Shown: positions 43,384 through 63,410 of the stretch, in pieces
Numbering within the stretch: position 1 is the stretch's first letter
Layout of the letters: the number at the start of each line of letters is the position of its first letter
DNA from: Candidatus Hydrogenedentales bacterium
GTDB lineage: Bacteria > Hydrogenedentota > Hydrogenedentia > Hydrogenedentales > SLHB01
Assembly (NCBI GenBank): GCA_041859475.1
Contig: JBHEKO010000113.1
Coordinates: forward strand, 11,212-75,211
Length of the DNA: 64,000 nucleotides
Direction: 5' to 3'
Notes under the pieces: generated by a model
What the model was told of the DNA's origin: nothing
Database searches by the model: none
The model's input: the letters and a program-made list of their open reading frames with translations, nothing else
Position numbers and translations under genes: made by a program

Positions 43384-43426
43384 TGAACTATCCTTTTTCT
43401 ACGAATGACCCGCAATTTTCTTAATC

Positions 43427-44656: not shown

Positions 44657-44807
44657 TTTTTCGCTCCTCGTATCGTTTGCACACCCCTGCATTCGCTGGA
44701 TTGTACAACTTCCAGTTTTTAGCGGCAAGCGTCGATTGAAAGAAATTGTCATTCACTAAGCCTCGCGTTCACTGACTACGCGGGCAATTATGAATAAACA
44801 TGATTGC

Positions 44808-45962
44808 CTAGCGGCACCGATACCGAACTCCGGTGAGTCCCATCAGCATGACCAGTATACCTCCGCCTACAAGCGTCCAACGTCTTATATTCTTCTCATG
44901 TGTTGCCTGAGTATCCGCGGATGTAACTGGCTCCGGCAAAGACGATGTGCCCGAAGGAGAGCTTGCGACGGCCGCAAGATCGGCTGGGGGAGGTAGAGGC
45001 AAGTCATCAAGGCTCATCGATAATTTCTCCACTGGCTCTAAGAGCTGCTGTTGCGCGATAGCTGTCATGCTTGCGCGCTCGGAATTCACTTTGACTTCTT
45101 TCATCCGTTTTTCCATCACGTCGCGAATGATAGCGAGAGTGCTTTTTCCCAGCTGAATTAACTCTTCAGAAGGAGGAATCGGGCTTGATGAATCAAAAAA
45201 CGCGTTCTCCAGCGTCGAAAACAAAAAAGAGTCCAAATCGTTAGCTAGGCCCGAAAGGAACATTTGTATCTGTGGGTGCAACGACGTATTCAGTGAGGCG
45301 TTGGGGTCGTAATATCTTTTAAGCGTCTCCCATTTTCCTTTCATTGTGCTCTGAATGTTGATATTCTGCGTCCGTAGGCTTGTAAGTACATCTTCTGACT
45401 GAGGCGAGCCATCTTTGGTCATACCGAACAACCGTCCCCCAAAATATACATCTACATCTCTGTTATAATGCTTTGTAAACCGCTCATCGGCCCTTTGCTT
45501 TAGGGTATCCAACAAAGGACTTGGGAGAAAGTAGTAATCCTGTTCAATCCAGGCGGCCAACGCTTTTCGAAACACAATCGAGTTTTCGATGTCTTGGGCG
45601 CGCTGTTTTTCCGATAGTTCCGGAAGCGCAAGATAGTTGTCGAGCGACTGCCCCAGCCGTAACTCGATCAAGCCAAACGAGGAGTCATCGAAGGCAGATG
45701 GATCGCTGTATCCTTTGAAAAGGTTCAGCCGTTCGAAGTCGTGGAGACCGTCCTGGGCCTTCCTAGAGGGAACCTCCTCGGCTTTCTCCAGTTTGGACTC
45801 AATAACCTTTATCAGGCGGTCTTTCCAAGCCGAAGTAAATGCTGTGTTTTCTTCGATCTGCGCTGAAAACCCCTTGATCAGGGCCTCATTTGCCGCGAAA
45901 GCAAACGCCGGACACCCCAGTACGATCAATACCCACAAAATGCCACTATTGATGTTTTTCAT
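44808..45962 (-). CDS. Signal-peptide protein with C-terminal TM anchor
   Basis: Signal MKNINSGILWVLIVLGCPAFAFA. C-terminal TLVGGGILVMLMGLTGV. Confidence 0.4.
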   Translation of the reverse strand: MKNINSGILWVLIVLGCPAFAFAANEALIKGFSAQIEENTAFTSAWKDRLIKVIESKLEKAEEVPSRKAQDGLHDFERLNLFKGYSDPSAFDDSSFGLIELRLGQSLDNYLALPELSEKQRAQDIENSIVFRKALAAWIEQDYYFLPSPLLDTLKQRADERFTKHYNRDVDVYFGGRLFGMTKDGSPQSEDVLTSLRTQNINIQSTMKGKWETLKRYYDPNASLNTSLHPQIQMFLSGLANDLDSFLFSTLENAFFDSSSPIPPSEELIQLGKSTLAIIRDVMEKRMKEVKVNSERASMTAIAQQQLLEPVEKLSMSLDDLPLPPPADLAAVASSPSGTSSLPEPVTSADTQATHEKNIRRWTLVGGGILVMLMGLTGVRYRCR

Positions 45963-47799
45963 CGTTCGTTTCCTGGGGTTGCCTTTTTAACTGGGTATAA
46001 ATTTGTAGACTTACTTTCTCTTGCTGGCTTGCATACGGCATCTCTTCAGGTGGATGGGGTACATCACCCTGTTTTTCAAAGAAGCTTGTGAGACGATCCC
46101 GCCATTCTGTGCAACGTCGGGACAGAGCGACAGGGATATTACTCCTGGTGAGTGCCTGTTGCGCACAAACGAGGGCCATACCTAGACGATCCTGTACGAC
46201 CAGGCGAGCTACCTCACGACCAATGTCCGTGTCAGGAACCTGCCCATAGGCTGGGATCAGGTATTGGGTGGTCACAATCGCCCCCATTTCTTCCGAAATA
46301 AACTCATAGGTAAACTGCACAAGGCCTTCGATACTATATGTGTAATATCGTTGTGGAATCTCGTTGCGTATGTAGAAATCAGAGTAAGCCGCGAGGGACT
46401 CTGCCAGCCGAGCCCGATCACCGGTCTTCAACGCCGCAAACGCATTGTATTTGATGCACTGTTGCCTCTCCAAAGAAGATTCAGTATACAACTCATCGTG
46501 GGAGTAGTAGCTCGGAACATACGTAGCATTATGCTCACTAATCGCTGAATACAGCAGATCGAGACGAGATGCGGAGTCTTTGATACGAGCCAGCACCGTA
46601 GTCCTATGCTGGGCTGCGGCTTCTGCGACATCCTCGATTGGTGCAACCTCAAGGTATTTGGTCTCATAGTGAGGGATTGAGTCTGCAATATAGGACATTG
46701 CTGAAAGCTCAAGCCGTCCGTCTATAGTATTCTTGAAAGACACCCGAAGTATCGATTCCTTGGGAGGATACTGAATGGCCCTTTTGGGCTGATAGCTGCT
46801 CGCTGGCATCTGGGCTAGACCCGCCGTGCCTTGAGCGTCATACCGAATCGAATCCTGCAGGATCATGGTGCGAGGTCTAAGCCTGACGTCGTACCCTCTG
46901 AGCGCACCTTCCTTGGAAAAGTGACCATACCATTCCTGAAATGGCCCATTTCTGTCCTCAATTCTGGCAATAGGTGCAGTAGGAGATTTGGGGAATAAGC
47001 TGTCCAAACTTTGGACTTGTAGCTTCCTGGCGTGCGCAAACGTCGTAGCTCCCCACGTACATGAGTAAAGTGTCGCCTGGAAGGGAATGGGCCGGACAGG
47101 TAATCTCTGAGCAAATATCTTGGCGAATGGAATGGAATCATACACGCTCAACCCATCAGTCCAGTGCGCATGATGCGCGAACGGAAAAAACGGGAGAGTG
47201 AGCTCTCTGCGGACAAACAGGGGTTCATACCAGTCGGCAAAAAGATCACGCGTCTCGCCATCCGTGTATGTTGTGGCATCCATATATACTGGATATTGAT
47301 TCATCAAATAGTTCGATTGCGCGTAGCGAAAGTGACTGCGTAGCGAGGTAAGGCCAGCATATGAGAGTCTAGATAACTCTGAGTAAAATCTCGCCTTTGT
47401 GTCGGCATGCCAATAGCTGCGCGTATCGGTGCCTGCCGATGTCAGACTATCAGGAAGAAACGACGGAACGTCAGGAATTTCCCTGTCAACTCCTGTATAC
47501 GATAGAGCTAGTGGAATCTTCTCTAGTCGCCGCTGGGCCAAGTCGAAGGGAAGCACACTCGCTTCAAAGAGAAAGTCTACTGCTGTTCGTGAATTCAGAT
47601 AAGGTACAGGATCCACTTTTGCAAATGAATCTGATATTTGCTTTATAGCGGCGTCACGAGCGCGAACCATTGCATCCTTTGCTTGTTGCTCAGCAACCTC
47701 CGTTGAGCCCTCCCCCGGCGCAGCGTCTGCAGACAGTCCCCAAAGCAGCGCCAATGCGCCCCCCAGAAGCGCTATCTTAGAGGCACGAGGTACGAACAT
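45946..47799 (-). CDS. Large secreted hypothetical protein
   Basis: Start placed at MFVPRASKIALLGGALALLWGLSADA (ATG 47799-47797). About 617 aa. No recognisable domain. Confidence 0.4.
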   Translation of the reverse strand: MFVPRASKIALLGGALALLWGLSADAAPGEGSTEVAEQQAKDAMVRARDAAIKQISDSFAKVDPVPYLNSRTAVDFLFEASVLPFDLAQRRLEKIPLALSYTGVDREIPDVPSFLPDSLTSAGTDTRSYWHADTKARFYSELSRLSYAGLTSLRSHFRYAQSNYLMNQYPVYMDATTYTDGETRDLFADWYEPLFVRRELTLPFFPFAHHAHWTDGLSVYDSIPFAKIFAQRLPVRPIPFQATLYSCTWGATTFAHARKLQVQSLDSLFPKSPTAPIARIEDRNGPFQEWYGHFSKEGALRGYDVRLRPRTMILQDSIRYDAQGTAGLAQMPASSYQPKRAIQYPPKESILRVSFKNTIDGRLELSAMSYIADSIPHYETKYLEVAPIEDVAEAAAQHRTTVLARIKDSASRLDLLYSAISEHNATYVPSYYSHDELYTESSLERQQCIKYNAFAALKTGDRARLAESLAAYSDFYIRNEIPQRYYTYSIEGLVQFTYEFISEEMGAIVTTQYLIPAYGQVPDTDIGREVARLVVQDRLGMALVCAQQALTRSNIPVALSRRCTEWRDRLTSFFEKQGDVPHPPEEMPYASQQEKVSLQIYTQLKRQPQETNDEKHQ

Positions 47800-48131
47800 C
47801 CGACATATGCTCCTTTCTGGGGATTTTAATTGTGCTGCGAAATCTACTGGACGGACAACGCATCGCGCACTGACGGATACCTCACAATACGTACTCATCC
47901 CTGCCCGCAACTCCCTCGCAACATAGAAACCGACGAGATATATCGTACTTCCGTGGCATTGCACCAATACTAAGGAATGGGCAAGGTAGCAGGCGAACTT
48001 CTAAGGCTAAACCGGTGCCGCCACACGTTATCATTTCGTAGCGAGGAATTCGCAAGCCGTCCTTATCCGGCTTAATCACATTAACCGACCATGAGTCGAA
48101 GTGAGATTTAGGTCACATAAATAACCATACC

Positions 48132-48872
48132 CTAGTGACGCTGGAAATCCAATAGTGAAATAGTGTATAGAACATCCTTCATTGTCCAAGCAACACAACT
48201 CTGCCTCATCTCATTTGACTCCAGGGTTTTCCATTCCGTGTGGGTGCTTGCTGCGATCCGTTTGATCGCGTCGACTTGCTCCTTCCGCAATCGCTCAAGA
48301 TTCTGATCGTTCAAGGGAAGTTTGTATTTCGGGCAGAACCATGCGTCGATCATACACTTACGGTAATCGACATATTCTTGCACGGGTTTGATGAGTTCAG
48401 CTGGCGTGCAAATACCTGAGAAAGCCTCTTGCAGAGCCTGCGCAATCGTGGCCGCTAAAATCGAAGACTGTGCTTCGAGCTTTGCACGTTGAGCCACGGA
48501 CGGTGGCTCGGTCTTTATCATGATCGCAAAAGCTGCATCGAGCTGTTCAAGGATGGATTCGACGGACCGCGATTCTTGTTGTAGTTCGCGTTGAAGCGCA
48601 TCTCCCAAAAGTCGGAATGAGATTTGAGCATAGTCTGGCCCGACCGCAACGAGACGAGGTTCCAGACGTGGCAAGTGTGCTGCAAACACAGCCTGCGCAG
48701 ACTGAAGGAATTGCCCATTCGGCCAACCGTTCGACGCTTGTTCAACACCCGCTTTGAACGCCTCATAACACGGTGACGCTTGTGAAATTTCCCCAGACGC
48801 AGGCACGATGCAAAGAAGAGCTACGGCCAGCAGGAACAGCCGCATACCATATGTTGAATTGATTATCTTCAC
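48132..48872 (-). CDS. Secreted hypothetical protein
   Basis: Signal-like MRLFLLAVALLCIVPASG. Helical. Confidence 0.35.
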   Translation of the reverse strand: MKIINSTYGMRLFLLAVALLCIVPASGEISQASPCYEAFKAGVEQASNGWPNGQFLQSAQAVFAAHLPRLEPRLVAVGPDYAQISFRLLGDALQRELQQESRSVESILEQLDAAFAIMIKTEPPSVAQRAKLEAQSSILAATIAQALQEAFSGICTPAELIKPVQEYVDYRKCMIDAWFCPKYKLPLNDQNLERLRKEQVDAIKRIAASTHTEWKTLESNEMRQSCVAWTMKDVLYTISLLDFQRH

Positions 48873-48972
48873 TAAGAGAGACCTCTGGCTCTAGAGAGGC
48901 AATATGCCCTCCTCAAAGAAAGGCGCACTTCGTATGGGAAGGGCGCCTTTCCAGCACGATATCTTTCACTCA

Positions 48973-49830
48973 TTACTGTATTCGAACTGTCGAAAACGTA
49001 CTGTAGCTGACCGTTCCGTCAGTGCGGTCTGCGCTACCACTCGATATAGCTTCCAAATGACGCTTGTAGGCGCGAGAAGCACACGTTGTATCACTGTAAA
49101 TAGGGCCGCTACACGACATGTTGAAGGTTATACCTCCCCATATGTGCCGGTACGTAGTGGTCTCAACGCCTGTCGTCACAGTAATGCTCTCTGAGCCGCC
49201 ACATGGGCATTCCTGCGCGGTCAGGGGAGCGTTTACGACCGTTGTGTACACGGCGTTATTCTCATCCGTAAAGGTAGGCGGTGTTCCAGTTGAGTAACCA
49301 CTTCCCGCCGTGTAGCTTAGTGCCTCAAGGCAGGACGTCCCACGGCCGTAATACATTATCGGTAATCCTCCTGCAGGAAACTTCCACCAAAGGTCCGCTA
49401 GCATGTAACCTGAGACGGCGGCCGTGTTGGTGCCCACGGAAGTTGGTGGGACTTTCATGTCTACAGTAATCGACATATCTCCACGAATCGTCGGATGGAA
49501 CGCATACGGCGCAGGATCGCCAGGCCCACTCCATGTCCACGTTGTCGTCGCATTCCACAGCACAGCACCAGACGCCTCGGTGTAGCCAACTGCTGCGGAT
49601 GCGGAGCCGTGGGCACCCGACATGATCACGGTAATGGGAGTCGGTGAAAACCCCGGAACACCCCAATCTGGATACACTTCTGCGCAGTACTTCGAACCCG
49701 TGGCGGCCGCTCCGCTCTGGTCTGGGCTCCCCGAGCCAGTGACAATCCAATATCCTGCTGATGCTGGCAAGCATACTAAAGAGCCCCATAGAGCCACAGC
49801 GATCACCGCAACTTCTCTCCAACTCTTCAT
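48973..49830 (-). CDS. Secreted Ser/Thr/Gly-rich hypothetical protein
   Basis: Start MKSWREVAVIAVALWGSLVCLPASA, preceded by an AGGAGGAG RBS. Confidence 0.4.
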   Translation of the reverse strand: MKSWREVAVIAVALWGSLVCLPASAGYWIVTGSGSPDQSGAAATGSKYCAEVYPDWGVPGFSPTPITVIMSGAHGSASAAVGYTEASGAVLWNATTTWTWSGPGDPAPYAFHPTIRGDMSITVDMKVPPTSVGTNTAAVSGYMLADLWWKFPAGGLPIMYYGRGTSCLEALSYTAGSGYSTGTPPTFTDENNAVYTTVVNAPLTAQECPCGGSESITVTTGVETTTYRHIWGGITFNMSCSGPIYSDTTCASRAYKRHLEAISSGSADRTDGTVSYSTFSTVRIQ

Positions 49831-49986
49831 GATTTCTCCTCCTGTTCGTTTGAGCGGGCCCACTAAACAAGACATACGTATCGGAAGCCTTTCTTGTCGC
49901 AAATCTACATCGGGGCAGATTGAATAAATAAGCGACTGCTCCTATTCCCCAACCCATAGTATCCTATTTTCCGCCGATCAGTCAGA

Positions 49987-50982
49987 CTACTTAGGCGCGG
50001 GTGCGATGCACGCAATACGAATGGGGGACGAGTCATCTGAAAAATATAGACAAAGGGTTCCTCGCGAAACACCGTAGATTCCTTCCTTAGTTTTTATCTT
50101 ACAGATCAGGACATCCGGCGTATCTTCCTGTTGCTCAAGGGCCTCTAGAATAATTGACTCGCTTTCCATCTCCCATCGCGTCACGTGCGGATATGGAGGA
50201 GAGAAACTGGACAGCTTGATGCGATACTCGGTCAGAGTCGGCACTACGAATAAGGTCTGGGGATAAACCTCAACAAATGAAGCGATGTTCATTGAAACAG
50301 GAATCCTCAAATCCCCTCTTTTGGGGTGTTGCAGCACTATCGCTCCCGCTAGCGGACCATGATTTTCATTCGGAACCGTCACCCTCACATCAATCTTGAG
50401 CAATTGGCCTTGCCGTTTGAACTCATAGAACTCTATCCAATTAGAACTTCGCGCCAAGTGGTATTCTTCAGAGGAGTCGTTTTCGGGAATTCTAATGAGC
50501 AGTTTTTGGTGAAGCGTCTCCCCTGCGCGGACCATTCCAAAGACAATTTTACTCGGGGTGGCATCAGGCATTTTGAGTATCGGCGCATCTCCGGTAACAG
50601 GTAGTATTATAGCCGTGGGAACGCCTCCCTCAAGCGAGATGAAAATCGTAACCTGTACGCCTTTACTTTTCCCGGTCGTATCAACCTCTATATGCAGCGC
50701 CGTCGATTTTCCCGGTTGAATGGTCCAGTCTTCCACCTTGACAGATGCACACGGGCAAGAGACCTCTACCTTTTTCAGGCGAATATCCTTGGTGCCAGTG
50801 TTCGACAACGTCACCACCTTTGAGTATATTTTTCCAGGCTCAATGATTCCTAGCGAGACGGAGTCAGGCACAACTTTTAGTGTGCTCGCGTCTGAATCCA
50901 CTGCTGAAGATAGACACAGAAACATAGCTATAGCTATTGAACACAGAAGCACGTGATTCAAGGTGTTTCGACTCGTGGCCAC
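49987..50982 (-). CDS. DUF1573-like secreted protein
   Basis: Signal peptide. VTLSNTGTKDIRLKKVEVSCPCASVK. Confidence 0.5.
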   Translation of the reverse strand: MATSRNTLNHVLLCSIAIAMFLCLSSAVDSDASTLKVVPDSVSLGIIEPGKIYSKVVTLSNTGTKDIRLKKVEVSCPCASVKVEDWTIQPGKSTALHIEVDTTGKSKGVQVTIFISLEGGVPTAIILPVTGDAPILKMPDATPSKIVFGMVRAGETLHQKLLIRIPENDSSEEYHLARSSNWIEFYEFKRQGQLLKIDVRVTVPNENHGPLAGAIVLQHPKRGDLRIPVSMNIASFVEVYPQTLFVVPTLTEYRIKLSSFSPPYPHVTRWEMESESIILEALEQQEDTPDVLICKIKTKEGIYGVSRGTLCLYFSDDSSPIRIACIAPAPK

Positions 50983-52097
50983 TAGAGAGATTTCCTTGCC
51001 GCAGGCCGTCGTCTTAGCCTGACGAGCCAGTAGAGCAGCACCGCCAGTAATATTCCGCCAACAATCAATCGGGTAATTAGCCTAGAGGGCAGGAAAGGCA
51101 GCGCGGTGTGAACCTGGACCTCCACCCTAGTCGCAACTTCCGCAAGGTCGGCGTCTTTGGCTGGTGCGTAAAGGTCCTCACTGTAAACAGGCCTTGCTCT
51201 CGGCTCGCCTAAACCGCCGGTGTCGCCGTCCGGAAGCGATGGGGCATAGCTGTTGGCGATAGTGTACCTCTCGCCAAGTATCCTGTCATCCACTCGAGTG
51301 CCCGGCGGAAACGTTATACGCATCTCGTTGTCGTCTATTGGGCCATTTACGACAACCCGGTCAAACCTTGTCAACAGCACCCGCTCTTGCAACGAGTCCT
51401 TCTCATAGGTCCGTTTTGTTATTGCCCCCGGCACCCATATCCCGGGGGCGACTTCCCGATAGTCGGAAAATTCAGACTCAAATGACGGGTTACCGTCCCT
51501 ATCCGTATAACTGGAAGACGTCGGCATATATCCTAATTTGGGATCTACGGTCAGGACAAATTTCATGGCCTGAACTGATTGCCGCAGGACATAAAGTGAG
51601 CGCTGCGCGTCCCACGTAATATCGGCTCCGGTTTTGACAAAGTGTTCGAGTGGAACTCCCCCGATGGTCCACACAGAATCGAAGAAAGGGTGGCCGGCGT
51701 TAGCTAGATCATTCTTATAGCCTCTTTCTACAATGCCGTCAAAGACAGGGGCCTTTGGGCTCTTGTCCGGGGGGTACTCGTCTAGTCTTTTGTTCCATTT
51801 GTCGGTGTACTCCCAGGACAGAACCGAGTCGCTCCTCTGGCTGCGGAAATAGCTGTGCTTGGGCGTCCAAAGCAAAAGGTTGGAGCAATTATCCAGGAGA
51901 ATCTTTCCCGGCGCGGATAAGTCTGAGCCCGGATACTCAACAGATTTCTTATCGAACTCTATGCGCAGTGACTTGATTTCTTGTCTTTTGGCCGTCATCA
52001 GGTCGACCAGTTCATCTACTTGTAGCGCGCTCTGGGCGTTGATATCTCTAGCAAGAAGAAGAACAAGGAAACACATTAACCACCGCGTCACCGGCAT
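50982..52097 (-). CDS. Signal-peptide protein with C-terminal TM anchor
   Basis: Start MPVTRWLMCFLVLLLARDINAQS. C-terminal LIVGGILLAVLLYWLV followed by RLRRRP. Confidence 0.4.
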   Translation of the reverse strand: MPVTRWLMCFLVLLLARDINAQSALQVDELVDLMTAKRQEIKSLRIEFDKKSVEYPGSDLSAPGKILLDNCSNLLLWTPKHSYFRSQRSDSVLSWEYTDKWNKRLDEYPPDKSPKAPVFDGIVERGYKNDLANAGHPFFDSVWTIGGVPLEHFVKTGADITWDAQRSLYVLRQSVQAMKFVLTVDPKLGYMPTSSSYTDRDGNPSFESEFSDYREVAPGIWVPGAITKRTYEKDSLQERVLLTRFDRVVVNGPIDDNEMRITFPPGTRVDDRILGERYTIANSYAPSLPDGDTGGLGEPRARPVYSEDLYAPAKDADLAEVATRVEVQVHTALPFLPSRLITRLIVGGILLAVLLYWLVRLRRRPAARKSL

Positions 52098-52219
52098 GGC
52101 GACAGCTCCTCTGGAGTTGGAAGAGTCCATTTCTTAGAAAGAGGCTGCCGCCCCCCCTGAGAGTAAGACAAACTACAATTTTATCTATTATAAATGTTTC
52201 AAATGCAACAATAATTCTG

Positions 52220-52684
52220 TTAATACCTGCACTGTGTGGCTTCTTCTCCGCAGGGCTCGTCAGGCTCACTTAGACCAGCGCACCAACTATCGAAGACAAA
52301 CCCAGTGCATATGCCGCTCAACTTTTCCTTCCCTTTGCACGGGTGAGATTGCGTCACCTCGCAAGCCCATCCCCAATTCGAACAGTCCATACATTCTCTG
52401 TATGCGGTAGCATCAGAACATATCCACGCATTTCCATATTGCTGGCAAGAGGTTGAATATCCGTTGCCTTGGTCAGCTACGCAGTCATAGGGGTAACCAC
52501 CCGGACGACAGTAGTTTCCTGTATTTGCGCAGTCAGTATCGTCGCACGCACCTCCATAGAGTCGTGCTTGTTGTTCAATACTTACCGATGTGCCCAGTGG
52601 CAAAGAGGGTCCGCCCAAAAAGAACATCGATCCCCAGAACATTACGGCAAATGCAGTAACAAACACCAAGACCATTCTGCCCAT
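52220..52684 (-). CDS. Small Cys-rich secreted protein (about 20 Cys in about 154 aa)
   Basis: Start MGRMVLVFVTAFAVMFWG with an AGGAGGAG RBS. CDDTDCANTGNYCRPGGYPYDC...CMDCSNWGWAC... Confidence 0.4.
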   Translation of the reverse strand: MGRMVLVFVTAFAVMFWGSMFFLGGPSLPLGTSVSIEQQARLYGGACDDTDCANTGNYCRPGGYPYDCVADQGNGYSTSCQQYGNAWICSDATAYRECMDCSNWGWACEVTQSHPCKGKEKLSGICTGFVFDSWCAGLSEPDEPCGEEATQCRY

Positions 52685-52758
52685 GTTGAGCTCCTCCTCT
52701 AATTCAAAATTTCGCACTTCTAGCAGCGTTAGCACTGTACGCAAAAACGCAGGCCGTG

Positions 52759-53457
52759 TTACATAGAGTCCGGTATGCGTATCCGTTTTCGCTCAAAAAA
52801 TGGGCGAGAGAGCAGCACGCTGGTTCCGATCAATGCGAGAGCCCCGAGGCTAATCCAGCTCCATTGGCGCGGATTCGGCACAGATCGGGTTTGGATTCCC
52901 AGTACAATGATCGCATACCACGTTGCCTCTGGAATCTTGTCAAGGTTGGCGTCCGTTAGGGTTAGCGGCTCAAGGGGTCCATCGAGAACATAAAACCTTC
53001 CCCTGTTCGCCGGAACGAACAGCTGAAAATGCCCGACAGCGCCGCCGTCCTCTGGTTCTTGGCTGCGCATCACAATTGCGGGAGATCGCAGACGGCGCAA
53101 GTCATCAACCGTGACGATAACCGTTGTAGTTTCATATCCTCGTCGCTCGAAGAAATCCCCAATACTTTTGATTGTGCAGCCTTTTTCTGAGACATCCAAC
53201 TCCTTCGTCAGTGCGTCGAGCGTTTCTGGACGTTTAAGCAGACTAAGTAGGTGCCACACCGCATATGGTCCACAGAGGTTCTCCGGGCCACGACCCTCGG
53301 GTCTCTCGACGGAACTTAGATAATCAAGTGCCCAACCGTTCTTGACTATGGGGGCTGCCGTTGCGGCGCAAGGTACACTCAGCGAAAGCCCAAGAAGAAC
53401 GCATGTTACGAGGAGACAGAATCGAAACACGTCAGATTTGTTGTTAAGCACTGCCAT
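52759..53457 (-). CDS. Peptidase C39-like (papain-fold Cys/His/Asp) domain protein with signal peptide and C-terminal TM anchor
   Basis: ENLCGPYAVWHLL (candidate catalytic Cys), GAVGHFQLFV (His), FYVLDGP (Asp). C-terminal WSWISLGALALIGTSVLL. Start MAVLNNKSDVFRFCLLVTCVLLG with a GGGAGGAA RBS. Confidence 0.45.
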   Translation of the reverse strand: MAVLNNKSDVFRFCLLVTCVLLGLSLSVPCAATAAPIVKNGWALDYLSSVERPEGRGPENLCGPYAVWHLLSLLKRPETLDALTKELDVSEKGCTIKSIGDFFERRGYETTTVIVTVDDLRRLRSPAIVMRSQEPEDGGAVGHFQLFVPANRGRFYVLDGPLEPLTLTDANLDKIPEATWYAIIVLGIQTRSVPNPRQWSWISLGALALIGTSVLLSRPFFERKRIRIPDSM

Positions 53458-53742
53458 CCCTAAGCTACATTCCTCCCGGAGATCGAGCAGGTTCTCACAA
53501 TCGCTACATGCACAGGCAACATTCAATACCATCGGCGTCAAGTACATCCTGAAGTACCGACCCGCCATCTCATATCAGCGCGTTGCACTACCGGCTGCAA
53601 TGATCTAACTACCAGGAAAAATATACATACAATATATGTATATGTCAAGTAGTATTTTGAATCAAGCTTATTTATGATTTGACCTAGATTTTTAACATTA
53701 CGATTTCCATAGTAGTAGTGCGTCCAGGGAAAGGGGCAATCA

Positions 53743-55638
53743 ATGCGGATAAGCGTAGCGTTGTCGATGAGGTGGACTCTTGGGCTCATGCCTCTGCTTC
53801 TGATGGGCTTGGACGCTTGGTCTGCAGAGGCCAAGGGTCGGACTGACTCTCCGGAAATGGCAGCGGTTCCCGGTGGTTGGTTTATCATGGGCAAAGGCCC
53901 GGGAGCGACTCTGCAAAAAGCTGAGGAAGAGCAACTGTCACTGCCGGTCATGCTGAACGCTCAGGGAATGGGTGGTGGCGATCATAATGGTCTGGGGACG
54001 GTGTTTGAGGGAATAGAGAATGGGAATGGTATAATTGATTTGGTCGAATTTGGCTACCTCGACTGTATCTTGCATGACTCGACAAGACCGCAGCATTTGT
54101 TGGTGAACAAGGCATGGAAGCATAATGTCGACAAGGTTAGGGAGATCCTGTCCGGCCTGACCGGAAAAGCCAAGGAATGGTGGGTCACTAAAGCCAAGAG
54201 CGGGATTGGTACGTCAGGAAATGTACCGTTACCTGATATGACGGTTTACTGTATTGCGTCGTACATTACGATTGGCGAACCGTTGGACTATGTAGAGGGT
54301 TGGCTCGGCTCAATAGTCTATGGTGCAGGGAAACGCTATGAGATCACCGATCCTGAATTTGATCTTAGTGCTACATCTGTATTACGTCCTGACGCCGATC
54401 CCGACAAAGACTGGGTATCAAACAAAGATGAATGGGACAAACTTGGAGGCAACTGGTGGTTCACTGCGCTTCCATGGTTCATCAAACTCGATGCTGTTGA
54501 GCAGTATGCCCAGATCGCTCTGAACCCAGCCTACATTGGTTCCCGAAGTGAAAACCAAGGCCACCCGACCAGCGACAACCCCGTCCAAATCCTCTCGCCC
54601 CCACCTTCTGATCAGGAAAGCGCCCAAACCCGCGCAGAGGATGAAAAAAACTATCTAGCTACTCTCCAGGTCGTCGCCGAAGGCAAACGGCGTATGGGCG
54701 AAAGAATGAATATCCCCAAGTACAAGAAGTTCGAATGGCCCTTCGCAGCTGCCGAAGAACATGCTGTTTGGCTCGATTCATACAGGATCGGTCGGTACGA
54801 AGTCACCAACGCTGAGTTTGCTGAGATGCTTACCGACTACGACAAAAAAGGCAAATTCACATATTCGCCCAAAGGCTCACCCCATCTGAATGGATACGAC
54901 ATAATCCACCTGGCCGATGCCGACTGTCAGATCACTCGCGATCCCGAAACGTCAAAGTACTTACCCAAGATACAGGATGGAATCCCGTGCGATAATTACC
55001 CTGTTGTAGAAGTCACTTGGTATGGTGCCGTTGCCTACGCCAATTGGCTTAGCGAGAAACACGGATTCGCTACCTGCTATGACTCTAACACCTTAGAACC
55101 GCTCATTCCGTTTCGTGACGGGTACCGCCTCCCGACCGAGGCAGAATGGGAACGAGCGGCGGGATGGGTTTCAGATGCTCCGAACGGCGTTAGGCTCCCA
55201 GATGGAACCAAGGGAGTAGCATGGAGGTTTGCCGTGTCGAGCAACGAAATAGTCGAGAGCAGAGCCAACTTCGGGAAAAACCCTGAAAAAACGGGAGGCA
55301 CCGGCCTGACTCTCCCGCAAACTACTCCCATCGGGGTTTTCACTGGCTCCACGGGCACGCAGAATTGTTCTCCTGTCGGTTGTGCGGATATGAGTGGAAA
55401 CGTCTGGGAGTGGTGCCATGACTGGTATACTCCACGCCCAAAAGACACCCAGCACAATCCCCTTGGTCCCCCCTCTGGCCAGTTTAAGATCACGCGTGGA
55501 GGCGCCTGGAACTATCCCAAAGAAGGATGTCTTGTCTATAGCCGCGGTTGGGAAATCCCTGGGCATTCATCCTTTAACCACGGTTTCCGACTGGCCCGGT
55601 CCACAGCCCAAGGTTCCACCAAAATTTCTCACCGATAA
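53743..55638 (+). CDS. Secreted protein with C-terminal formylglycine-generating-enzyme (FGE/SUMF1) domain
   Basis: 631 aa. Signal peptide. C-terminal FGE motifs RIGRYEVTNAEF, YRLPTEAEWERAAGW, GNVWEWCHDWY, RGGAW. The N-terminal about 300 aa are unassigned. Confidence 0.65.
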   Translation: MRISVALSMRWTLGLMPLLLMGLDAWSAEAKGRTDSPEMAAVPGGWFIMGKGPGATLQKAEEEQLSLPVMLNAQGMGGGDHNGLGTVFEGIENGNGIIDLVEFGYLDCILHDSTRPQHLLVNKAWKHNVDKVREILSGLTGKAKEWWVTKAKSGIGTSGNVPLPDMTVYCIASYITIGEPLDYVEGWLGSIVYGAGKRYEITDPEFDLSATSVLRPDADPDKDWVSNKDEWDKLGGNWWFTALPWFIKLDAVEQYAQIALNPAYIGSRSENQGHPTSDNPVQILSPPPSDQESAQTRAEDEKNYLATLQVVAEGKRRMGERMNIPKYKKFEWPFAAAEEHAVWLDSYRIGRYEVTNAEFAEMLTDYDKKGKFTYSPKGSPHLNGYDIIHLADADCQITRDPETSKYLPKIQDGIPCDNYPVVEVTWYGAVAYANWLSEKHGFATCYDSNTLEPLIPFRDGYRLPTEAEWERAAGWVSDAPNGVRLPDGTKGVAWRFAVSSNEIVESRANFGKNPEKTGGTGLTLPQTTPIGVFTGSTGTQNCSPVGCADMSGNVWEWCHDWYTPRPKDTQHNPLGPPSGQFKITRGGAWNYPKEGCLVYSRGWEIPGHSSFNHGFRLARSTAQGSTKISHR

Positions 55639-55842
55639 GGGTTGCAGCTTCAGTTAACCAGATACTCTCGAACATCTACTCAAACGAGGCCCGTCGAGCC
55701 GTCACGCTCTGGAGTCCCTCGGTCTATTATTCGGTTAGCTCGAGCCTACCCCAACACAGGCGCTTGTATTGACTCATTCCACTCTCTGTGTTATCGTCTA
55801 GATTAATATTGGGGTGCTTTCCGTCTGCATTGGGGGTAACCA

Positions 55843-56802
55843 ATGGAGTTATTGTCTGGCAGGTGGCGGCCTAGGCTCTACGGCGGTGTGGCGGCATTGT
55901 TGCGCGTAGTAGCTTTAGGCGCGTGCGTAGCGTGTAGCCCATACGCATGGGCGGTTTCGGGCGGGCTTTCGGAAGAGGAGCAACTCGACCTTCTGGAGCG
56001 CGCCGATAAGTACTGCTATTCCCCAGGGAGTTCGAGCCGCGAAGCGATTCGACTCTACGAGGAAGTACTCGAAAAGGTCGATTTGGCGCCACCTATCCGG
56101 CTAGACATCCAGTTTCGCATCGCCAACATGCACCTGTTTTTGCTTACCAAAGATACGGGCGGCAAACCGGACCTTCTTGGAGCGCTGGAACGGTACCAGG
56201 CTATTGTGCGCGACTACCCCAAGAACGAGGTAATCGTTTTTCAGTCCAGCGGATACATCGCCGATTGCTATTCTTTGCTTAATCGACGTCCCGAGGCCGA
56301 AAAACAATATCTTTCGGTTCGCCGTTTTGCCCGGGCCGTTCCCGAATCCGATGCTCCTCGGTATGGCCCCTATCTCAAGGGTTGGCGAGACGGCGCGATG
56401 CGGAATGTGATCGGACTATACGACTGGGAAGGCGAAATCGGGATCGCCAATCTGCAGCGCGTCGCCCGGGAAAACCCCGACGATACCGAGTTGTGTGCCG
56501 AAATCGAGAAGACCATCTCCAGAATGAAGGAGAAGAGCATCAAAGAAGCCGCCAACGCCCTTACCGAGGACTTGACCGCGCAGAACGTCGCGATGCCAGA
56601 TTCTTCACCCGCCAATGCGAACGGCTCTGCCTCCTCTGACGATGAAGTGACTCCCGCCGCCCCCACGGTCTCCGAGACCGTGCCCGTAGCGTCACCCCGC
56701 GAGAATCGCATGGCTTACTATGGCTACGGCGGAGCGCTCGCGCTTCTCCTTGCCATCGGCGGCCTTTTCTATCTGCGTAGTCGCGACAGAAAGAAGGCCT
56801 AG
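55843..56802 (+). CDS. TPR-like protein with signal peptide and C-terminal TM anchor
   Basis: 319 aa. C-terminal YGYGGALALLLAIGGLFYL followed by RSRDRKK. Confidence 0.4.
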   Translation: MELLSGRWRPRLYGGVAALLRVVALGACVACSPYAWAVSGGLSEEEQLDLLERADKYCYSPGSSSREAIRLYEEVLEKVDLAPPIRLDIQFRIANMHLFLLTKDTGGKPDLLGALERYQAIVRDYPKNEVIVFQSSGYIADCYSLLNRRPEAEKQYLSVRRFARAVPESDAPRYGPYLKGWRDGAMRNVIGLYDWEGEIGIANLQRVARENPDDTELCAEIEKTISRMKEKSIKEAANALTEDLTAQNVAMPDSSPANANGSASSDDEVTPAAPTVSETVPVASPRENRMAYYGYGGALALLLAIGGLFYLRSRDRKKA

Positions 56803-56811
56803 TAGCCAAAA

Positions 56812-57816
56812 GTGTTGCCGTACAGCCGTTTCAAGTATATGGACCGAATAGGGAAAGGAGAGCCGAGGATGACGCGCTGGACCACCATCATGCTCACGGC
56901 GGGCTTGACCGTTGGATCGCTATTTGCCGACGGGAAAGCCGCTGCGGACTATGCCTGGACCACGGGCGATCCTCCGAGGGGAACCATTTCCCCAAACGAC
57001 GCCCAGGTCCTTTTAGCCCCAGGAAAGTCCAAGCAATTTACGGCCTATGAAATTGGGGACAACGACTGCAAGAAGGACACCTCCACAAACGAACTCTTTA
57101 CCGTGGCCGATGAAGTCCCCACTACCAAGGTGCGCTGGGGATTGGACCGCTCCTTTGGAACCCTCACACCGGCTTCCGGTGTAGGAACCTCCGTCACGTA
57201 CACTTCCCCGACGACGAGCGGGCCTTGGGTAAGGCTCACGCTGTACGTAGACGATTTGTCCGCCAATCCGCCAGGTGCTCATGATCCTGAGTATCCGGCC
57301 GATTTCGTAGATATTTACCAGGTTCTGCCGAATGGGGAAGATGTAGAGTGGCAAGACCACTTTTCCAAGGCACCACATGAAATCGGCGACAAGTTCAGCC
57401 CACATACAGTCTATTTCAAGAGTTTTTTGGGAGAACGCCAGAACGTAGATTTTTCCGGCCTCGTCATCACGGAATACCAAGGTTTTCAATTCGTTTCCTG
57501 TTCGGTGCCGAATTTATCAGTGGATGAAGTGATGCAAGGGCAAGAAGGCTGGAATGGAAATTGGACCATAAACGGGAGTAATCAGAGGAGTGAAAACGAC
57601 GAACACGGATTTAATCGAGATGCTTTAGGGGGCGATTGGCTAGGTACAGGAGAAGTGGTTATCAACCAGAGGATGAAGGTGACGTCTCCGGTAGTGGGCT
57701 CCACCTGGTTTGTGATCCATCAGTTGAAATTCCGGTTCAAGAATGAAGGTTTGCCACCCAATACGGAATATAACTGCTACGTAAGCAAGCACGGCGTCGC
57801 ATGCCCGGACTTTTAG
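56812..57816 (+). CDS. Secreted hypothetical protein
   Basis: Probable start at MTRWTTIMLTAGLTVGSLFA (56869). No recognisable domain. Confidence 0.4.
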   Translation: MLPYSRFKYMDRIGKGEPRMTRWTTIMLTAGLTVGSLFADGKAAADYAWTTGDPPRGTISPNDAQVLLAPGKSKQFTAYEIGDNDCKKDTSTNELFTVADEVPTTKVRWGLDRSFGTLTPASGVGTSVTYTSPTTSGPWVRLTLYVDDLSANPPGAHDPEYPADFVDIYQVLPNGEDVEWQDHFSKAPHEIGDKFSPHTVYFKSFLGERQNVDFSGLVITEYQGFQFVSCSVPNLSVDEVMQGQEGWNGNWTINGSNQRSENDEHGFNRDALGGDWLGTGEVVINQRMKVTSPVVGSTWFVIHQLKFRFKNEGLPPNTEYNCYVSKHGVACPDF

Positions 57817-57892
57817 TCAGTGAAAGACTCTCAACGGCTGCGGCTTTCGTGCGCTTCAAGAGAGGAACGCGACAAAACGAGGAGGTATCGAG

Positions 57893-58699
57893 ATGTTCGC
57901 TACATTTAAGGTGACAACACTGTTGGCTGTTTTGTTTAGCCTGCTGTGCCTTAGCCCGGCCCAGGCGGCCCCGCTTCCTGCGGACATCGAAGGTAAACGA
58001 GCCTTGAACATATCCGAAGAGGAAGAGCGCCATGCGATTATGGCGGTGGGTGGCCTTACCTCGGAATATGAAGTTGCAATTTCGTACGAGAGTGCGATGC
58101 CCAGCGACCCGAATCCGGAAAAGCGAATTTCCTACCGGATTCGACGCAACGAAACGTTGGGCATGGCGCTCTCGATGTTCAAGGGCGGCACGAACGGGAT
58201 GCTCGAGGCCAAGCGCATTCGAAACGTGCTGTGCGTCGTATACAATACACCGCCCGGCGTCGTGAATCCGCTGGACTGCAAGGTCTCACTCAAGCTCGAA
58301 AACGTCACCGCGTGGGAAGCGTTTAAAACGCTCGGGAAAACCATCAATACATTGCCCCAGTTTGCCAAGCGCCCCGCAGCGCTGGTGAAAACGACTGTTC
58401 CCATCGGATTTGGAAAAGATCGCGCCGTGCCCCCTGTTTTGTACAAAGAGAAGTGCATTACGCTGAACCTGACCGATGTCACGGCGCGCGAAGCGGCGTG
58501 CGCGATTGTCGAGGCCGCCCCGTTCGAAATGAAGTTCCAATACATACATGGCGACGAGAACCCAAACAGTGGCCACTACCAGGACACCCTTTACATACAG
58601 GTGCTCCAGAACGGAAAGCCAGTAAGCACGGAGCCCTTGACTAAGGAAGAAGAGGAGTTCTGGCGCGCGGAAATTAAGGACGGTCTGGCACGGCCCTAG
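57893..58699 (+). CDS. Secreted hypothetical protein
   Basis: Signal peptide MFATFKVTTLLAVLFSLLCLSPAQA. A decayed copy of its 5' end lies at 58741-58850. Confidence 0.45.
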   Translation: MFATFKVTTLLAVLFSLLCLSPAQAAPLPADIEGKRALNISEEEERHAIMAVGGLTSEYEVAISYESAMPSDPNPEKRISYRIRRNETLGMALSMFKGGTNGMLEAKRIRNVLCVVYNTPPGVVNPLDCKVSLKLENVTAWEAFKTLGKTINTLPQFAKRPAALVKTTVPIGFGKDRAVPPVLYKEKCITLNLTDVTAREAACAIVEAAPFEMKFQYIHGDENPNSGHYQDTLYIQVLQNGKPVSTEPLTKEEEEFWRAEIKDGLARP

Positions 58700-58740
58700 A
58701 AAAAGCGTGCGGAAAGGGAGACGGCAGAGCGACGACCATA

Positions 58741-58850
58741 CACCGGAGGACAACGCCGTTGGCTGTTTTGGCCTGCTGTGCTTGTGTCGGCGCAGGCGGC
58801 CCCGTTTCCCGAGGACATCGAAGAAAAACGGGCCCTGAACGGCTAGCCGG
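58741..58850 (+). pseudogene. Degenerate duplicate (about 80% nt identity) of the 5' signal-peptide region of 57893-58699, frameshifted and truncated
   Basis: GACAACGCCGTTGGCTGTTTTGGCCTGCTGTGC...GGCGGCCCCGTTTCCCGAGGACATCGAAGAAAAACGGGCCCTGAAC aligns with 57914-58015. Confidence 0.45.
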
Positions 58851-59012
58851 AGGTGGCCTAACGAAATGTGCCTATCTCCGAACTACTCAAGAAGTATCCG
58901 CTGCTTTATCTGGCCTTCTTGGTGGCCTGTCCTCACTGCTTCTCTGCGAGTGGTGTCCGACGGTTTGACAAAGCAAGCCTGCAACCAGATTGATTCGGGT
59001 GGCCTCGGGCGA

Positions 59013-60581
59013 TTACACAAACACGGGGTCGGTGACGACGGGCATGACGCAGACGGCTTCTTCTCTTGCGCCGTCGAGTCGGTTTTGTTCGTGGGCGAGC
59101 ATGGCGCAACGGACGGCGTCGATGATGTGGTCGTTGCCTTTGGAGTAGACGACGTTGCCGTTTTGCAGGGTGTAGGTGTGGGTGGTGAATTGGTCTTCCA
59201 CCTCCCCATCGTCGGCGGGCAGCACGAGTTGCCTGCGTTGCAGCGCGCCGTTGATGAGACTCGTCATCAGTTCCTTGGTGCGTTTCTTTACCTCCCGTCC
59301 GTCGCGTATGGCCAGCGTGGTCATGCCGCCGAAATCATAGCCGTGCAGGCGCCCTTCGAGTTGGAGCGGCTTGTACTTGTCCAGCGCGAGCAGTTCCTGC
59401 ACGACGGCGAGCCCGTTGCCGCCGTTGTCCACGCCGATCCCCACCGGCGTGAAGTACCGTTCCAACAGCGCGATCGTCTGCGCGATGTGCGGATACGTGA
59501 CGTGTTCCATATGCACGCGCAGAACGAGCGTCAGGACCTTCCGTTCAGCGACCTCGCTCTCGCGAAACACCACGAGTTCCGTTGGGTCGTTGGTGTACCC
59601 GAGGTCGCCGCCGATCCAGAACACGCCCGTCTGCGGCATGAGGTTGAGGAGCATTTCCAGGCGGTCATGCGCGGCCTCCTCGGTCTCGCAATCGCGCAAC
59701 TCGCCGCCCGTGATCTCGAGTTTCCGGTACTCGGGCACGTCCTGTCTACACAGCCCGAGATACTCCACGTTGAACGCGCCGTAACTGGGCTTGCCGTGTT
59801 CGCCCGCCACCTCGTGTTGCCATCCCGCCGTATCGCGCCCGCCGTAGAACTCGAGCAGCTCCGCTTCGCGTGCGGGCGACCAATTCGGATTGATCCACGA
59901 CGGCCAACGAAACACGCGGAACTGCGTCGACGACGTGAGCCGGTAATACGTGGTGTCCCGCAGCCCGTTCGGCGTCGAGTAGATGCGCAGCGTGCCGTCC
60001 GCGTTGAGGCATTGCCGCAACGCTTTCCACGCACGTTCGGACAGCCACGCGCCTTCGTCCACCCAGATGCGGTCCACATGCAATGACCGAAACGCGTCGC
60101 CGTACGGACCCGCGGGCCGAAAGTACAGCACCGCACCGTTCGCGAATTCGATGCGGAAATACGGCTTGCGATGAATTTTCGGTTTGCCGTACTGGGTGGT
60201 CGCCACGCTCTTCATGAGCAGCGGGTTTGCGTCGAGTTGGAACTCGAACTCCTCGATGATGGTGTCCAGATGCCCTTGCTGCGGCGCGGCAATGAGTCCT
60301 TGTCCGCCGGTCGTGATGAAGGCGTAATGCAACGCGGCGGTGGACAGGGCAATCGTTTTGCCTACGCCACGGCCGTCGAGGTGGATGATGTTCTTCTCCG
60401 GGGCGAGTAGGTCTTCCGTCTGGTGCGGCCAATACTCACGCGGCGAGCCATCGCGGTTGCGCAGGTAATGGCGCCCCCACGACGCGGGATTTGTCAGCAC
60501 TTCGCGCAGACGTCGCTGTTCCTCGCGCGTCAATGAGTTCAAATCAGCGCCTCCCGTATCGCACTCCTTACCGTTGCCCAT
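59013..60581 (-). CDS. Phage terminase large subunit
   Basis: 522 aa. N-terminal ATPase Walker A HLDGRGVGKT. C-terminal RNaseH-like nuclease region with NDHIIDAVRCAM. Confidence 0.75.
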   Translation of the reverse strand: MGNGKECDTGGADLNSLTREEQRRLREVLTNPASWGRHYLRNRDGSPREYWPHQTEDLLAPEKNIIHLDGRGVGKTIALSTAALHYAFITTGGQGLIAAPQQGHLDTIIEEFEFQLDANPLLMKSVATTQYGKPKIHRKPYFRIEFANGAVLYFRPAGPYGDAFRSLHVDRIWVDEGAWLSERAWKALRQCLNADGTLRIYSTPNGLRDTTYYRLTSSTQFRVFRWPSWINPNWSPAREAELLEFYGGRDTAGWQHEVAGEHGKPSYGAFNVEYLGLCRQDVPEYRKLEITGGELRDCETEEAAHDRLEMLLNLMPQTGVFWIGGDLGYTNDPTELVVFRESEVAERKVLTLVLRVHMEHVTYPHIAQTIALLERYFTPVGIGVDNGGNGLAVVQELLALDKYKPLQLEGRLHGYDFGGMTTLAIRDGREVKKRTKELMTSLINGALQRRQLVLPADDGEVEDQFTTHTYTLQNGNVVYSKGNDHIIDAVRCAMLAHEQNRLDGAREEAVCVMPVVTDPVFV

Positions 60582-60871
60582 ACCAACCTCACGAGCGCCT
60601 GTTCGATGTCCGGTGTCTGCGCTTCCTCGCGCGCCTCAGCCCGCAGCGCAATGGCGGCCTCCTCGAGCGCGGTCCACTCCGGGTACTTTTGCGAGGCGGC
60701 CTCCGCGCGGGCTAATGCGTCGTCTATGCGCCCCGCGACGAGTTCGGCCCCCAACGCGACGAGCGTCAACCCCGCGCGCAGCACAGCGGCTTCGTTGGCC
60801 TTGAGCACGTCAGCGGGGTTCATCGGCGGCCTCCTGTTTCGCGGCCCAGCGGTCCAGCGCCTCGAGAGCAT
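60539..60871 (-). CDS. Hypothetical protein upstream of terminase (phage small ORF)
   Basis: 110 aa. No motif. Overlaps the terminase start. Confidence 0.25.
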   Translation of the reverse strand: MLSRRWTAGPRNRRPPMNPADVLKANEAAVLRAGLTLVALGAELVAGRIDDALARAEAASQKYPEWTALEEAAIALRAEAREEAQTPDIEQALVRLVWATVRSAIREALI

Positions 60872-61082
60872 CGGTCAAGCGTTCACCGATGCCGCACAAC
60901 CGTTCGGCGTCCGGGTGATTGGTTTGTGCCAGTGCCGCGTTGGATTCGCGCACGTACTCCGGCGCGTAGCGGTTTACGGTGTGGATGGCGTTCACGACGC
61001 GGTCCGGGGGGCGGCTGTGCGCGCATCCGGCGGACATGCAAAGGACGCCAAGGGCAATAACGGCGGACCTACTCAGCGGCAT
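60810..61082 (-). CDS. Small lipoprotein
   Basis: MPLSRSAVIALGVLCMSAGC lipobox. ATG at 61082-61080. Confidence 0.3.
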   Translation of the reverse strand: MPLSRSAVIALGVLCMSAGCAHSRPPDRVVNAIHTVNRYAPEYVRESNAALAQTNHPDAERLCGIGERLTDALEALDRWAAKQEAADEPR

Positions 61083-61182
61083 GTAGCGCTCCTTCCCGGG
61101 ACTTGACTTCCTCCCCCACACAGAGCGTGTATGTGCTCACGCGGCGGCACGGGGTCGCCGTGAAAACGCAAAGAGGAGAGCG

Positions 61183-63367: not shown

Positions 63368-63410
63368 GCATCACCTCCCTCTGACTTGACTTCCTTCTCG
63401 CCTGGAAGCG

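Follow-up and report, generated by a model that had tools for sequence, protein, structure and literature searches.

Introduction

C39 peptidases and the double-glycine leaders that they remove are familiar from the cytoplasm, where the system is coupled to ATP-binding cassette (ABC) transporters. This article describes two genes, encoding a C39-like cysteine peptidase and a Cys-rich protein, that lie side by side on the minus strand between positions 52220 and 53457 of a 64,000-nucleotide stretch of DNA from a Candidatus Hydrogenedentales bacterium (GenBank assembly GCA_041859475.1, contig JBHEKO010000113.1, positions 11,212 to 75,211). The whole stretch is hereafter called the window. Judged by comparative sequence analysis, the two proteins probably constitute an enzyme/substrate module in which a double-glycine propeptide is cleaved off outside the cytoplasm and no ABC transporter takes part. 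No description of such a module was found in literature and library searches, an absence that refers to the searched literature only.

The closest described systems are the peptidase-containing ABC transporters (PCAT) and the AMS proteins (for ABC transporter maturation and secretion), including ComA, PCAT1, LahT and CvaB. The classical double-glycine consensus consists of hydrophobic residues at positions -12 and -4 and GG or GA at -2/-1 (PMC13642728, PMC10885120), LahT-type enzymes need a hydrophobic residue at -7 (PMC10885120), and a 'Q-C-H motif' is described for C39 peptidases (PMC13642728). The module resembles these systems in its papain-like fold, in a Cys-His-Asp triad that falls in register, in a GG/GA leader with hydrophobic residues at -4 and -12 (PMC13642728, PMC10885120) and in the co-encoding of enzyme and substrate. 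It differs from them in that the peptidase is neither fused to nor located beside an ABC transporter: a PCAT carries its C39 domain at the transporter N-terminus, in the cytoplasm, whereas the window peptidase is a stand-alone protein of 232 amino acids with a signal segment and a C-terminal anchor. Further differences are the Sec signals on both enzyme and substrate, with a reaction predicted to occur outside the cytoplasm; an enzyme that is tail-anchored, or fused to tetratricopeptide (TPR) repeats and to its own substrate; a core of about 95-110 amino acids with 12 invariant Cys; a residue at -7 that is usually Gln; and the lack of the oxyanion-hole Gln. Unlike double-glycine bacteriocins, microcins and the precursors of RiPPs (peptides made by ribosomes and modified after translation), the module does not have its leader at the extreme N-terminus, as a Sec signal precedes it, and no dedicated ABC transporter was found in the window genes scanned.

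A precedent for an active periplasmic C39 peptidase is FapD of the Pseudomonas Fap amyloid system, a Sec-exported stand-alone enzyme whose catalytic Cys is required for cargo secretion across the outer membrane (PMC5557850). It is encoded in the fapA-F operon together with the FapF pore, and its substrate, which lacks a canonical GG leader, is unidentified (PMC5557850). No C-terminal membrane anchor is mentioned for FapD, and the module, in contrast, has an evident partner with a canonical GG leader. The window peptidase gave no match to any NCBIfam model, the FapD model NF058616 included, the relative P0015 reached 20 bits against a cut-off of 330, and the operon context differs. The C39-like domains (CLDs) of HlyB-type transporters share the fold (3zua and 7sgr are structural neighbours) and bind substrate before export, but they lack the catalytic Cys, are cytoplasmic and are fused to the transporter, whereas the family described here keeps Cys, His and Asp. 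The GlyGly-CTERM/rhombosortase system, known from VesB of Vibrio cholerae, is alike in concept, as it combines a dedicated membrane-associated protease, a glycine-rich signal and cargo linked to type II secretion (PMC6219818). It relies on a rhomboid serine protease and a C-terminal signal, the module on a C39 cysteine peptidase and an N-terminal one.

The C39 Peptidase

The peptidase gene and its features are the following (residue limits preceded by 'about' are approximate).

52759..53457, minus strand: C39-like cysteine peptidase gene, 232 amino acids from MAVLNNK, identified by the PF03412 match, profile comparison, AlphaFold2 (AF2) and Foldseek
53362..53439, minus strand: N-terminal signal peptide or membrane segment, residues about 7-32, hydrophobic FRFCLLVTCVLLGLSLSVPCAATAAP, AF2 helix 7-32
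52888..53328, minus strand: C39 papain-fold catalytic domain, residues about 44-190
53292..53290, minus strand: codon of R56, at the oxyanion-hole position
53274..53272, minus strand: catalytic codon of Cys62
53031..53029, minus strand: catalytic codon of His143
52983..52981, minus strand: catalytic codon of Asp159
52810..52872, minus strand: C-terminal membrane anchor, residues about 196-216, AF2 helix 196-216, followed by the basic tail FERKRIRIPDSM
53620..53648, minus strand: promoter-like site TTGACA-17-TATATT upstream of the gene (11/12 matches; consensus match only)

Further in-frame starts lie upstream at 53532 and 53568, and gene callers elsewhere chose one or the other of these.

Searches with single sequences revealed almost nothing. 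Word-index homology searches with either protein as query returned only the query itself, the profile version of this search recovered 3 proteins only, and a single-sequence search against the solved structures of the PDB gave nothing significant, so that a family profile was needed. An exhaustive HMMER search of 1.8 billion representatives identified 70 relatives of the peptidase. Thirty-one of them, of about 190-270 amino acids, share the signal segment, the C39 domain and the C-terminal membrane segment with its basic tail. Alignment A1, which comprises 32 family members, shows pairwise identities of only 20-35%; C62, G107 and H143 are invariant in it, D159 and W180 are at least 90% conserved, and a segment equivalent to residues 7-32 is present at the N-terminus.

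Several lines of evidence identify the fold and the catalytic residues. The window protein matches the Pfam model PF03412 (Peptidase_C39) with 27.6 bits (E=2.9e-6), which exceeds the curated cut-off of 22, and relatives score up to 47 bits. When compared with solved structures, the A1 profile retrieves ComA PEP (3k8u, 5xe8; E=6.7e-13), LahT150 (6mpz; 2.4e-8) and PCAT1 (4ry2; 2.8e-8), and in the profile alignment to 3k8u residues C62, H143 and D159 are in register with C17, H96 and D112, the catalytic triad of ComA. In the AF2 model built with the family alignment, the catalytic core has a predicted local distance difference test score (pLDDT) above 90, and a helix begins at C62; the closest solved folds found by Foldseek are PCAT1, ComA PEP and LahT150, with root-mean-square deviations of 2.7-3.9 A over about 130 residues and a target-normalised TM score of about 0.7. 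Across 82 distinct family domains, Cys is present in 79/79 alignable cases and His in 80/82, while the third position is Asp in 74/82 and Asn in 4/82. By these comparisons, open reading frame (ORF) 53457..52759 encodes a true C39 peptidase domain whose triad is intact. About 16 residues before the catalytic Cys, the family has a P-x-Y-L motif that is nearly invariant and may matter; in the peptidase of locus L012 (P0017), AH replaces GH at the motif of the catalytic His.

These results bear on an earlier sequence-only reading of the window. Both ORFs lie at the coordinates that it gave, on the minus strand. It had pointed to the motifs NLCGPYAVWHLL, GHF and DGP in the peptidase (the last within LDGP), to a signal segment, a C-terminal membrane anchor and the lack of fusion to an ABC transporter, all of which are borne out. 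It had suggested a search with the Peptidase_C39 model, which proved positive, and had staked its proposal on the Cys of NLCGPY, which does align with the catalytic Cys17 of ComA PEP. Its alternative, a non-catalytic or transglutaminase-like module, is disfavoured by the retention of Cys, His and Asp/Asn (78/82 for the last) across the family.

The catalytic domain sits between the N-terminal signal segment and the C-terminal anchor, the latter directly followed by ERKRIR, and by the positive-inside rule it should therefore face the periplasm. The same anchor and basic tail occur in the family members of about 200-260 amino acids. No ABC-transporter domain was found in those window genes that were scanned, and none is fused to the peptidase. 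Since no terminator-like site was detected in 51900..53900, and hence none between the two genes, the peptidase and Cys-rich genes are probably co-transcribed.

The Cys-Rich Protein and Its Double-Glycine Leader

The second gene encodes a putative pre-pro-protein with the following features.

52220..52684, minus strand: Cys-rich pre-pro-protein gene, 154 amino acids
52699..52693, minus strand: ribosome-binding site GAGGAGG, 7-8 bases upstream of the gene
52613..52678, minus strand: signal peptide or signal-anchor, residues 3-24, MGR then about 21 hydrophobic residues
52550..52585, minus strand: double-glycine leader V34-SIEQQARLY-G44-G45, its GG aligned with the GG/GA of homologues
Between 52550 and 52549, minus strand: predicted cleavage site, after G45
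52223..52549, minus strand: predicted mature core A46-Y154, 109 amino acids, 14 Cys (12 at family-invariant positions)

The protein is thus ordered as a signal peptide, the leader VSIEQQARLYGG with GG at residues 44-45, and a segment beginning ACDDTDC, the GG standing two residues before the first Cys. The sequence-only reading had described about 20 cysteines; the actual count is 14, all located after residue 45. It was right about the signal peptide of this protein, as an N-terminal hydrophobic segment is present and AF2 places a helix at residues 3-23 (pLDDT about 80), and the GG or GA motif that it proposed to look for is found in VSIEQQARLYGG/AC, where the slash, here and below, marks the predicted cut. 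With a Cys content above 9%, this is the sole plausible gene of its kind in the window; other high-Cys ORFs are short and look spurious.

The Cys-rich domain has no match among Pfam or NCBIfam models, its profile gave only noise against the PDB, with no solved-structure relative, and a metagenome scan with the Cys-rich protein alone as query detected no relatives. Its homology to a wider family emerged from the C-terminal tails of fused relatives, described below. A hidden Markov model (HMM) built from 14 such tails, all from related sequences elsewhere, scores the window protein at 34.3 bits from the leader to the last Cys, against a maximum of 6.3 bits in 2000 composition-preserving shuffles. 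In a 21-sequence alignment of leader and core that includes the window protein, 12 Cys columns and the first Gly of the GG are invariant, and the window protein keeps all 12 of these Cys, which probably form six disulfides in the core.

Of 26 distinct homologous sequences, 24, including all fused forms, have a leader that closes with GG or GA precisely where the Cys-rich domain starts. Positions were counted in 23 sequences anchored on the GG, the mis-anchored window row being left out. Position -2 is G in 23/23, and -1 is G in 22 sequences and A in the remaining one; -3 is R/K in 16; -4 is L/I/M in 22/23; -7 is Q in 15 and M/L/I in 8; -12 is L/I/V in about 20/21; and the residue at +1 is C in 17 and W in 4. 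The family leader matches the classical consensus at -12, -4, -2 and -1; at -7, where the leaders of bacteriocins, microcins and RiPP precursors also have a conserved hydrophobic residue, most members have Gln. In the same register the window leader reads V(-12) S I E Q Q(-7) A R L(-4) Y G G / A C. The leader of P0013 matched the GG-leader RiPP model TIGR04149 weakly, with 20.8 bits, below the cut-off of 25. A signal peptide precedes the leader in the window and in L008, L009, L012, L024, L027 and L028, and the leader is internal in the fused forms.

Fused Relatives and Conserved Gene Order

The link between peptidase and Cys-rich domain is evident in the longer HMMER relatives, in which a signal peptide, TPR repeats, the C39 domain, a linker of about 60 residues, a GG motif and a domain of about 95-105 amino acids with 12-14 Cys follow one another in a single chain. 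The residues leading to the GG read, for example, LSQQQIESIKGG, ADQKLANLKGG or LNEQRQACLRGG. The combination of C39, '...L-x-G-G/C' and the 12-14-Cys domain was found in loci L004-L007, L010, L014-L017, L019, L021 and L022 and in proteins P0011, P0013, P0016, P0022, P0023, P0026, P0031, P0038, P0039, P0056 and P0061. A genome scan that used a 13-sequence subset of alignment A1 showed the same fusion in four loci of Planctomycetota metagenome-assembled genomes, assigned to Pirellulales, Phycisphaerae, Sedimentisphaerales and one unclassified Planctomycetota bacterium. In P0014 the split arrangement is translated as one continuous frame, in which C39 is followed by a membrane segment, a signal peptide and LSMDQQLHLRGG/C.

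Gene order was assessed by scanning the fetched loci in six frames with three HMMs, representing the C39 family, the leader plus core, and the third gene of the module. The leader and Cys-rich domain are fused to the C-terminus of the peptidase or encoded in the next gene in 19/21 informative distinct loci. In the predominating order C39 leads, the GG/Cys-rich element comes next, within the same ORF or as a gene of its own, and a third gene of about 380-450 amino acids follows. This third gene follows in 18/21 loci and precedes the peptidase in one (L030), and the partial loci L009 and L024 end too early to include it; it accompanies the peptidase in all loci that extend far enough. The next, partial gene beside the closest peptidase relative, P0006 (36% identity), encodes a signal peptide and LTADEQAGIFGG/GTYLCKDC. 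Split-form Cys-rich homologues begin with typical Sec signals and the fused forms also carry signal peptides. The leader junctions of the split forms are as follows.

L008: LSIEEQSQMKGG/C
L009 (partial): LTMAEQHAARGG/VC
L012: MFVG/VC, no GG
L027: LVGQ/LC, no GG
L028 / L032: LSATEQLVVGG/AC

The non-GG junctions belong to ORFs L012 3434..3865 (plus strand; FVG/VC) and L027 1031..1462 (plus strand; LVGQ/LC), where enzyme and cleavage site may have co-varied. L012 also carries, at 1513..2577 (plus strand) and directly upstream of its C39 gene, a membrane protein of the MauE family together with a 152-aa ORF whose CPDC motif makes it look thioredoxin-like by eye, an arrangement seen in this one locus. 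MauE is linked to disulfide formation and would fit a disulfide-rich product.

Partner Genes and the Type II Secretion Context

Downstream of the Cys-rich gene the module continues with two genes and is followed by a type II secretion system (T2SS).

50982..52130, minus strand: third gene, 382 amino acids, with a signal peptide, possibly a LolA-like domain, and a C-terminal membrane anchor with RRRPAARK
49987..50982, minus strand: fourth gene, 331 amino acids, DUF1573 / Ig-like (Pfam PF22544 and PF07610)
31290..42076, minus strand: T2SS operon, downstream, with GspE, F, G, pseudopilins, J, K, L/PilN-like, M, a 154-aa gene and the secretin GspD

The hints that the third protein is LolA-like are weak (Pfam E=0.005 in L017; PDB 9tp6 E=0.063). 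In each of the four split-form loci with enough sequence (the window, L008, L012 and L028) the DUF1573 gene stands fourth, and its C-terminal 95 or so residues share homology with the extension that the third gene of the fused forms has at its C-terminus. Nothing else is conserved around the module across the compared loci. In the window the module heads a long run of genes on the same strand, which continues with six unannotated secreted proteins and the complete T2SS operon; beyond these lie a further DUF1573 gene and a cluster for polysaccharide synthesis. In the distant relative L032, whose peptidase is 29% identical, a T2SS operon ends 4 kb upstream of the module and shares with the window operon the order K, L-like, M-like, a gene of about 155 amino acids and secretin. 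On the strength of these two loci, export of the matured product by the adjacent T2SS is conceivable, if somewhat doubtful.

Three DUF1573 / HYDIN-VesB-like Ig-domain paralogues occur in the window, at 13522..14589 (plus strand), 29815..30885 (minus strand) and 49987..50982 (minus strand). Five proteins end in a hydrophobic segment and a basic tail, which suggests that they are tail-anchored periplasmic proteins: 12464..13516, 16736..17815 and 55843..56802 on the plus strand, and 50982..52130 and 52759..53457 on the minus strand. Some of these tails follow a GG, and they were considered as GlyGly-CTERM-like C-terminal signals cut by the C39 peptidase; this was rejected, as no motif is common to the tails and the GG that is conserved lies on the N-terminal side of the core. 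Divergent from the C39 gene, at 53743..55638 (plus strand), lies a gene for a secreted protein of 631 amino acids with an FGE-sulfatase domain (E=3.7e-41). Modification of a Cys of the Cys-rich protein by it was likewise discarded, because the CxPxR motif is lacking and the FGE gene is not conserved beside the module.

Proposed Mechanism and Alternative Explanations

The sequence-only reading had offered a processing enzyme and its substrate as one of two explanations for the gene pair, and the comparative evidence (gene fusion, conserved GG leader, synteny and aligned triad) favours it. In the mechanism proposed here both proteins would be exported by Sec, and the C-terminal anchor would keep the peptidase attached to the periplasmic face of the inner membrane. 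The 154-aa pre-pro-protein would consist of a signal peptide (about residues 1-25), a leader (34-45) that closes with L(-4)-Y-G-G, and the core of 109 residues. The peptidase would bind the leader and cut after G45 using C62, H143 and D159, and the freed 109-aa core would fold with conserved disulfides, about six in number. As chaperone, carrier or receptor, the third protein (possibly LolA-like) and the DUF1573 protein would hold the product or hand it on, and export by the adjacent T2SS may follow. For most relatives, in which peptidase, leader and core form one secreted polypeptide, the same cut would amount to self-processing. As for the role of the product, it could be bacteriocin-like, adhesive or structural.

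A number of observations weigh against this mechanism or parts of it. The oxyanion-hole Gln (Gln11 in ComA), expected 6 residues before the Cys, is absent in 82/82 family domains, the window peptidase having R56 instead, and because it is missing family-wide, catalysis may differ in detail or be weak. The window leader has Q rather than a hydrophobic residue at -7, although Q is the family norm (15/23), and the junctions of L012 and L027 are without GG. No Cys-rich gene lies close to the peptidase in L025/26, where C39 is followed by the third gene, or in L030/31, where C39 comes after a divergent third-like gene; since these loci pair the peptidase with a third-like gene only, the enzyme may have another or an additional substrate, possibly the third protein. 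The single-sequence AF2 model of the Cys-rich protein is unreliable (pLDDT 48). As for secretion, the link between T2SS and module rests on 2 loci, and the fused-form loci show no T2SS genes within flanks of about 5 kb.

The alternative that survives best, although it is unlikely, is that the peptidase would mainly cut another component of the module, such as the third protein or a T2SS or envelope protein, with the Cys-rich domain as its partner, regulator or inhibitor in the manner of staphopain and staphostatin. Besides the loci that keep the peptidase and a third-like gene without a Cys-rich gene, the constant company of the third gene speaks for it, and staphopains are among the structural neighbours of the peptidase found by Foldseek. 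FapD, the one periplasmic C39 peptidase known to have been studied, is also without an identified canonical GG substrate (PMC5557850). Set against this, a canonical GG-type leader lies precisely where the Cys-rich domain begins in nearly all homologues, an inhibitor role would need no conserved L-x-G-G junction, and the third proteins show no conserved GG motif, as far as reading by eye can tell. The loci concerned, L025 1931..4037 (plus strand) and L030 3334..5642 (plus strand), may use another substrate or may have a Cys-rich gene elsewhere in the genome.

It is rather improbable that the C39-like domain would be non-proteolytic, either as a leader binder or chaperone comparable to the HlyB type or as a transpeptidase or transglutaminase that moves the GG-ended part to an acceptor. 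The family-wide loss of the oxyanion-hole Gln and the structural proximity of the HlyB domain (3zua, 7sgr) would fit such a function, and the enzyme's GG-ended chain would itself serve as acyl donor in the fused forms. Transferase activity of papain-fold domains has been raised as a possibility for other papain-like toxin domains (PMC3482391). The known C39-like domains, a subgroup linked to type I secretion systems (T1SS), have however lost the catalytic Cys (PMC5557850), whereas Cys, His and Asp are almost invariant here; the best matches in both sequence and structure are the active peptidases ComA, LahT150 and PCAT1; and no acceptor is evident for a transferase.

That the adjacency is incidental, with functionally unrelated neighbours and a chance GG in a glycine-rich sequence, is very improbable: both proteins are near-orphans in word-index searches and a GG within a juxtamembrane linker of about 20 residues in a protein with about 10% Gly is in itself not improbable (a rough, uncomputed estimate of about 0.2), but the fusions and the gene order recur in 19/21 loci of at least three Planctomycetota lineages at 20-35% identity, and the GG column (first Gly) and 12 Cys columns are invariant.

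Other Features of the Window

Directly downstream of the T2SS, at 17936..30885 (minus strand), lies the polysaccharide-synthesis cluster, with several GT4 glycosyltransferases, a MurJ-like flippase, a weak Wzy_C-like gene and two FemAB/GNAT-like genes; a sulfotransferase gene is located at 3475..4392. A gene at 1478..2980 (minus strand) encodes a reverse transcriptase-Cas1 fusion (Pfam RVT_1 and Cas_Cas1), flanked on both sides, at 327-585 and 3035-3147, by 37-nt direct repeats with a spacing of about 74 nt. These repeats look like two small arrays of clustered regularly interspaced short palindromic repeats (CRISPR), of which the first possibly runs off the start of the window. The G+C content is 0.50-0.57 over 4000..58000, which includes the module, the T2SS and the polysaccharide genes, compared with 0.59-0.65 at 1..4000 and 58000..64000, and a tyrosine integrase gene (61376..62485, plus strand) is found near the right-hand transition; the 4000..58000 region may be a genomic island. 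An Rfam scan of the window gave no matches.

Concluding Remarks

What appears new in the module is extracytoplasmic double-glycine processing independent of ABC transporters, the fusion of enzyme and substrate, the 12-Cys domain and the conserved partner. Taken as a whole, these features have about an even chance of representing an undescribed maturation route of Planctomycetota. In this route the GG propeptide of a Sec-exported pre-pro-protein would be cut extracytoplasmically by a dedicated C39 peptidase, either anchored or in the same chain, with a new 12-Cys family, a LolA-like partner and, in the split form, export by a dedicated T2SS.

If this is true, double-glycine processing would be separated from ABC transporters and periplasmic C39 peptidases would gain their first clear substrate. 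Gene fusion points to the substrate, so that extracytoplasmic C39 enzymes would become directly testable in their specificity and mechanism, and the role of the missing oxyanion-hole Gln could be examined in the same module. A self-contained, leader-specific peptidase acting in an oxidising compartment could also serve as a tool for leader removal from disulfide-rich proteins. The secreted and envelope proteins of Planctomycetota are mostly uncharacterised. Two unannotated elements that are widespread in this phylum, a secreted 12-Cys domain and a partner protein, are defined by the module, which also suggests a candidate cargo for a planctomycetal T2SS.

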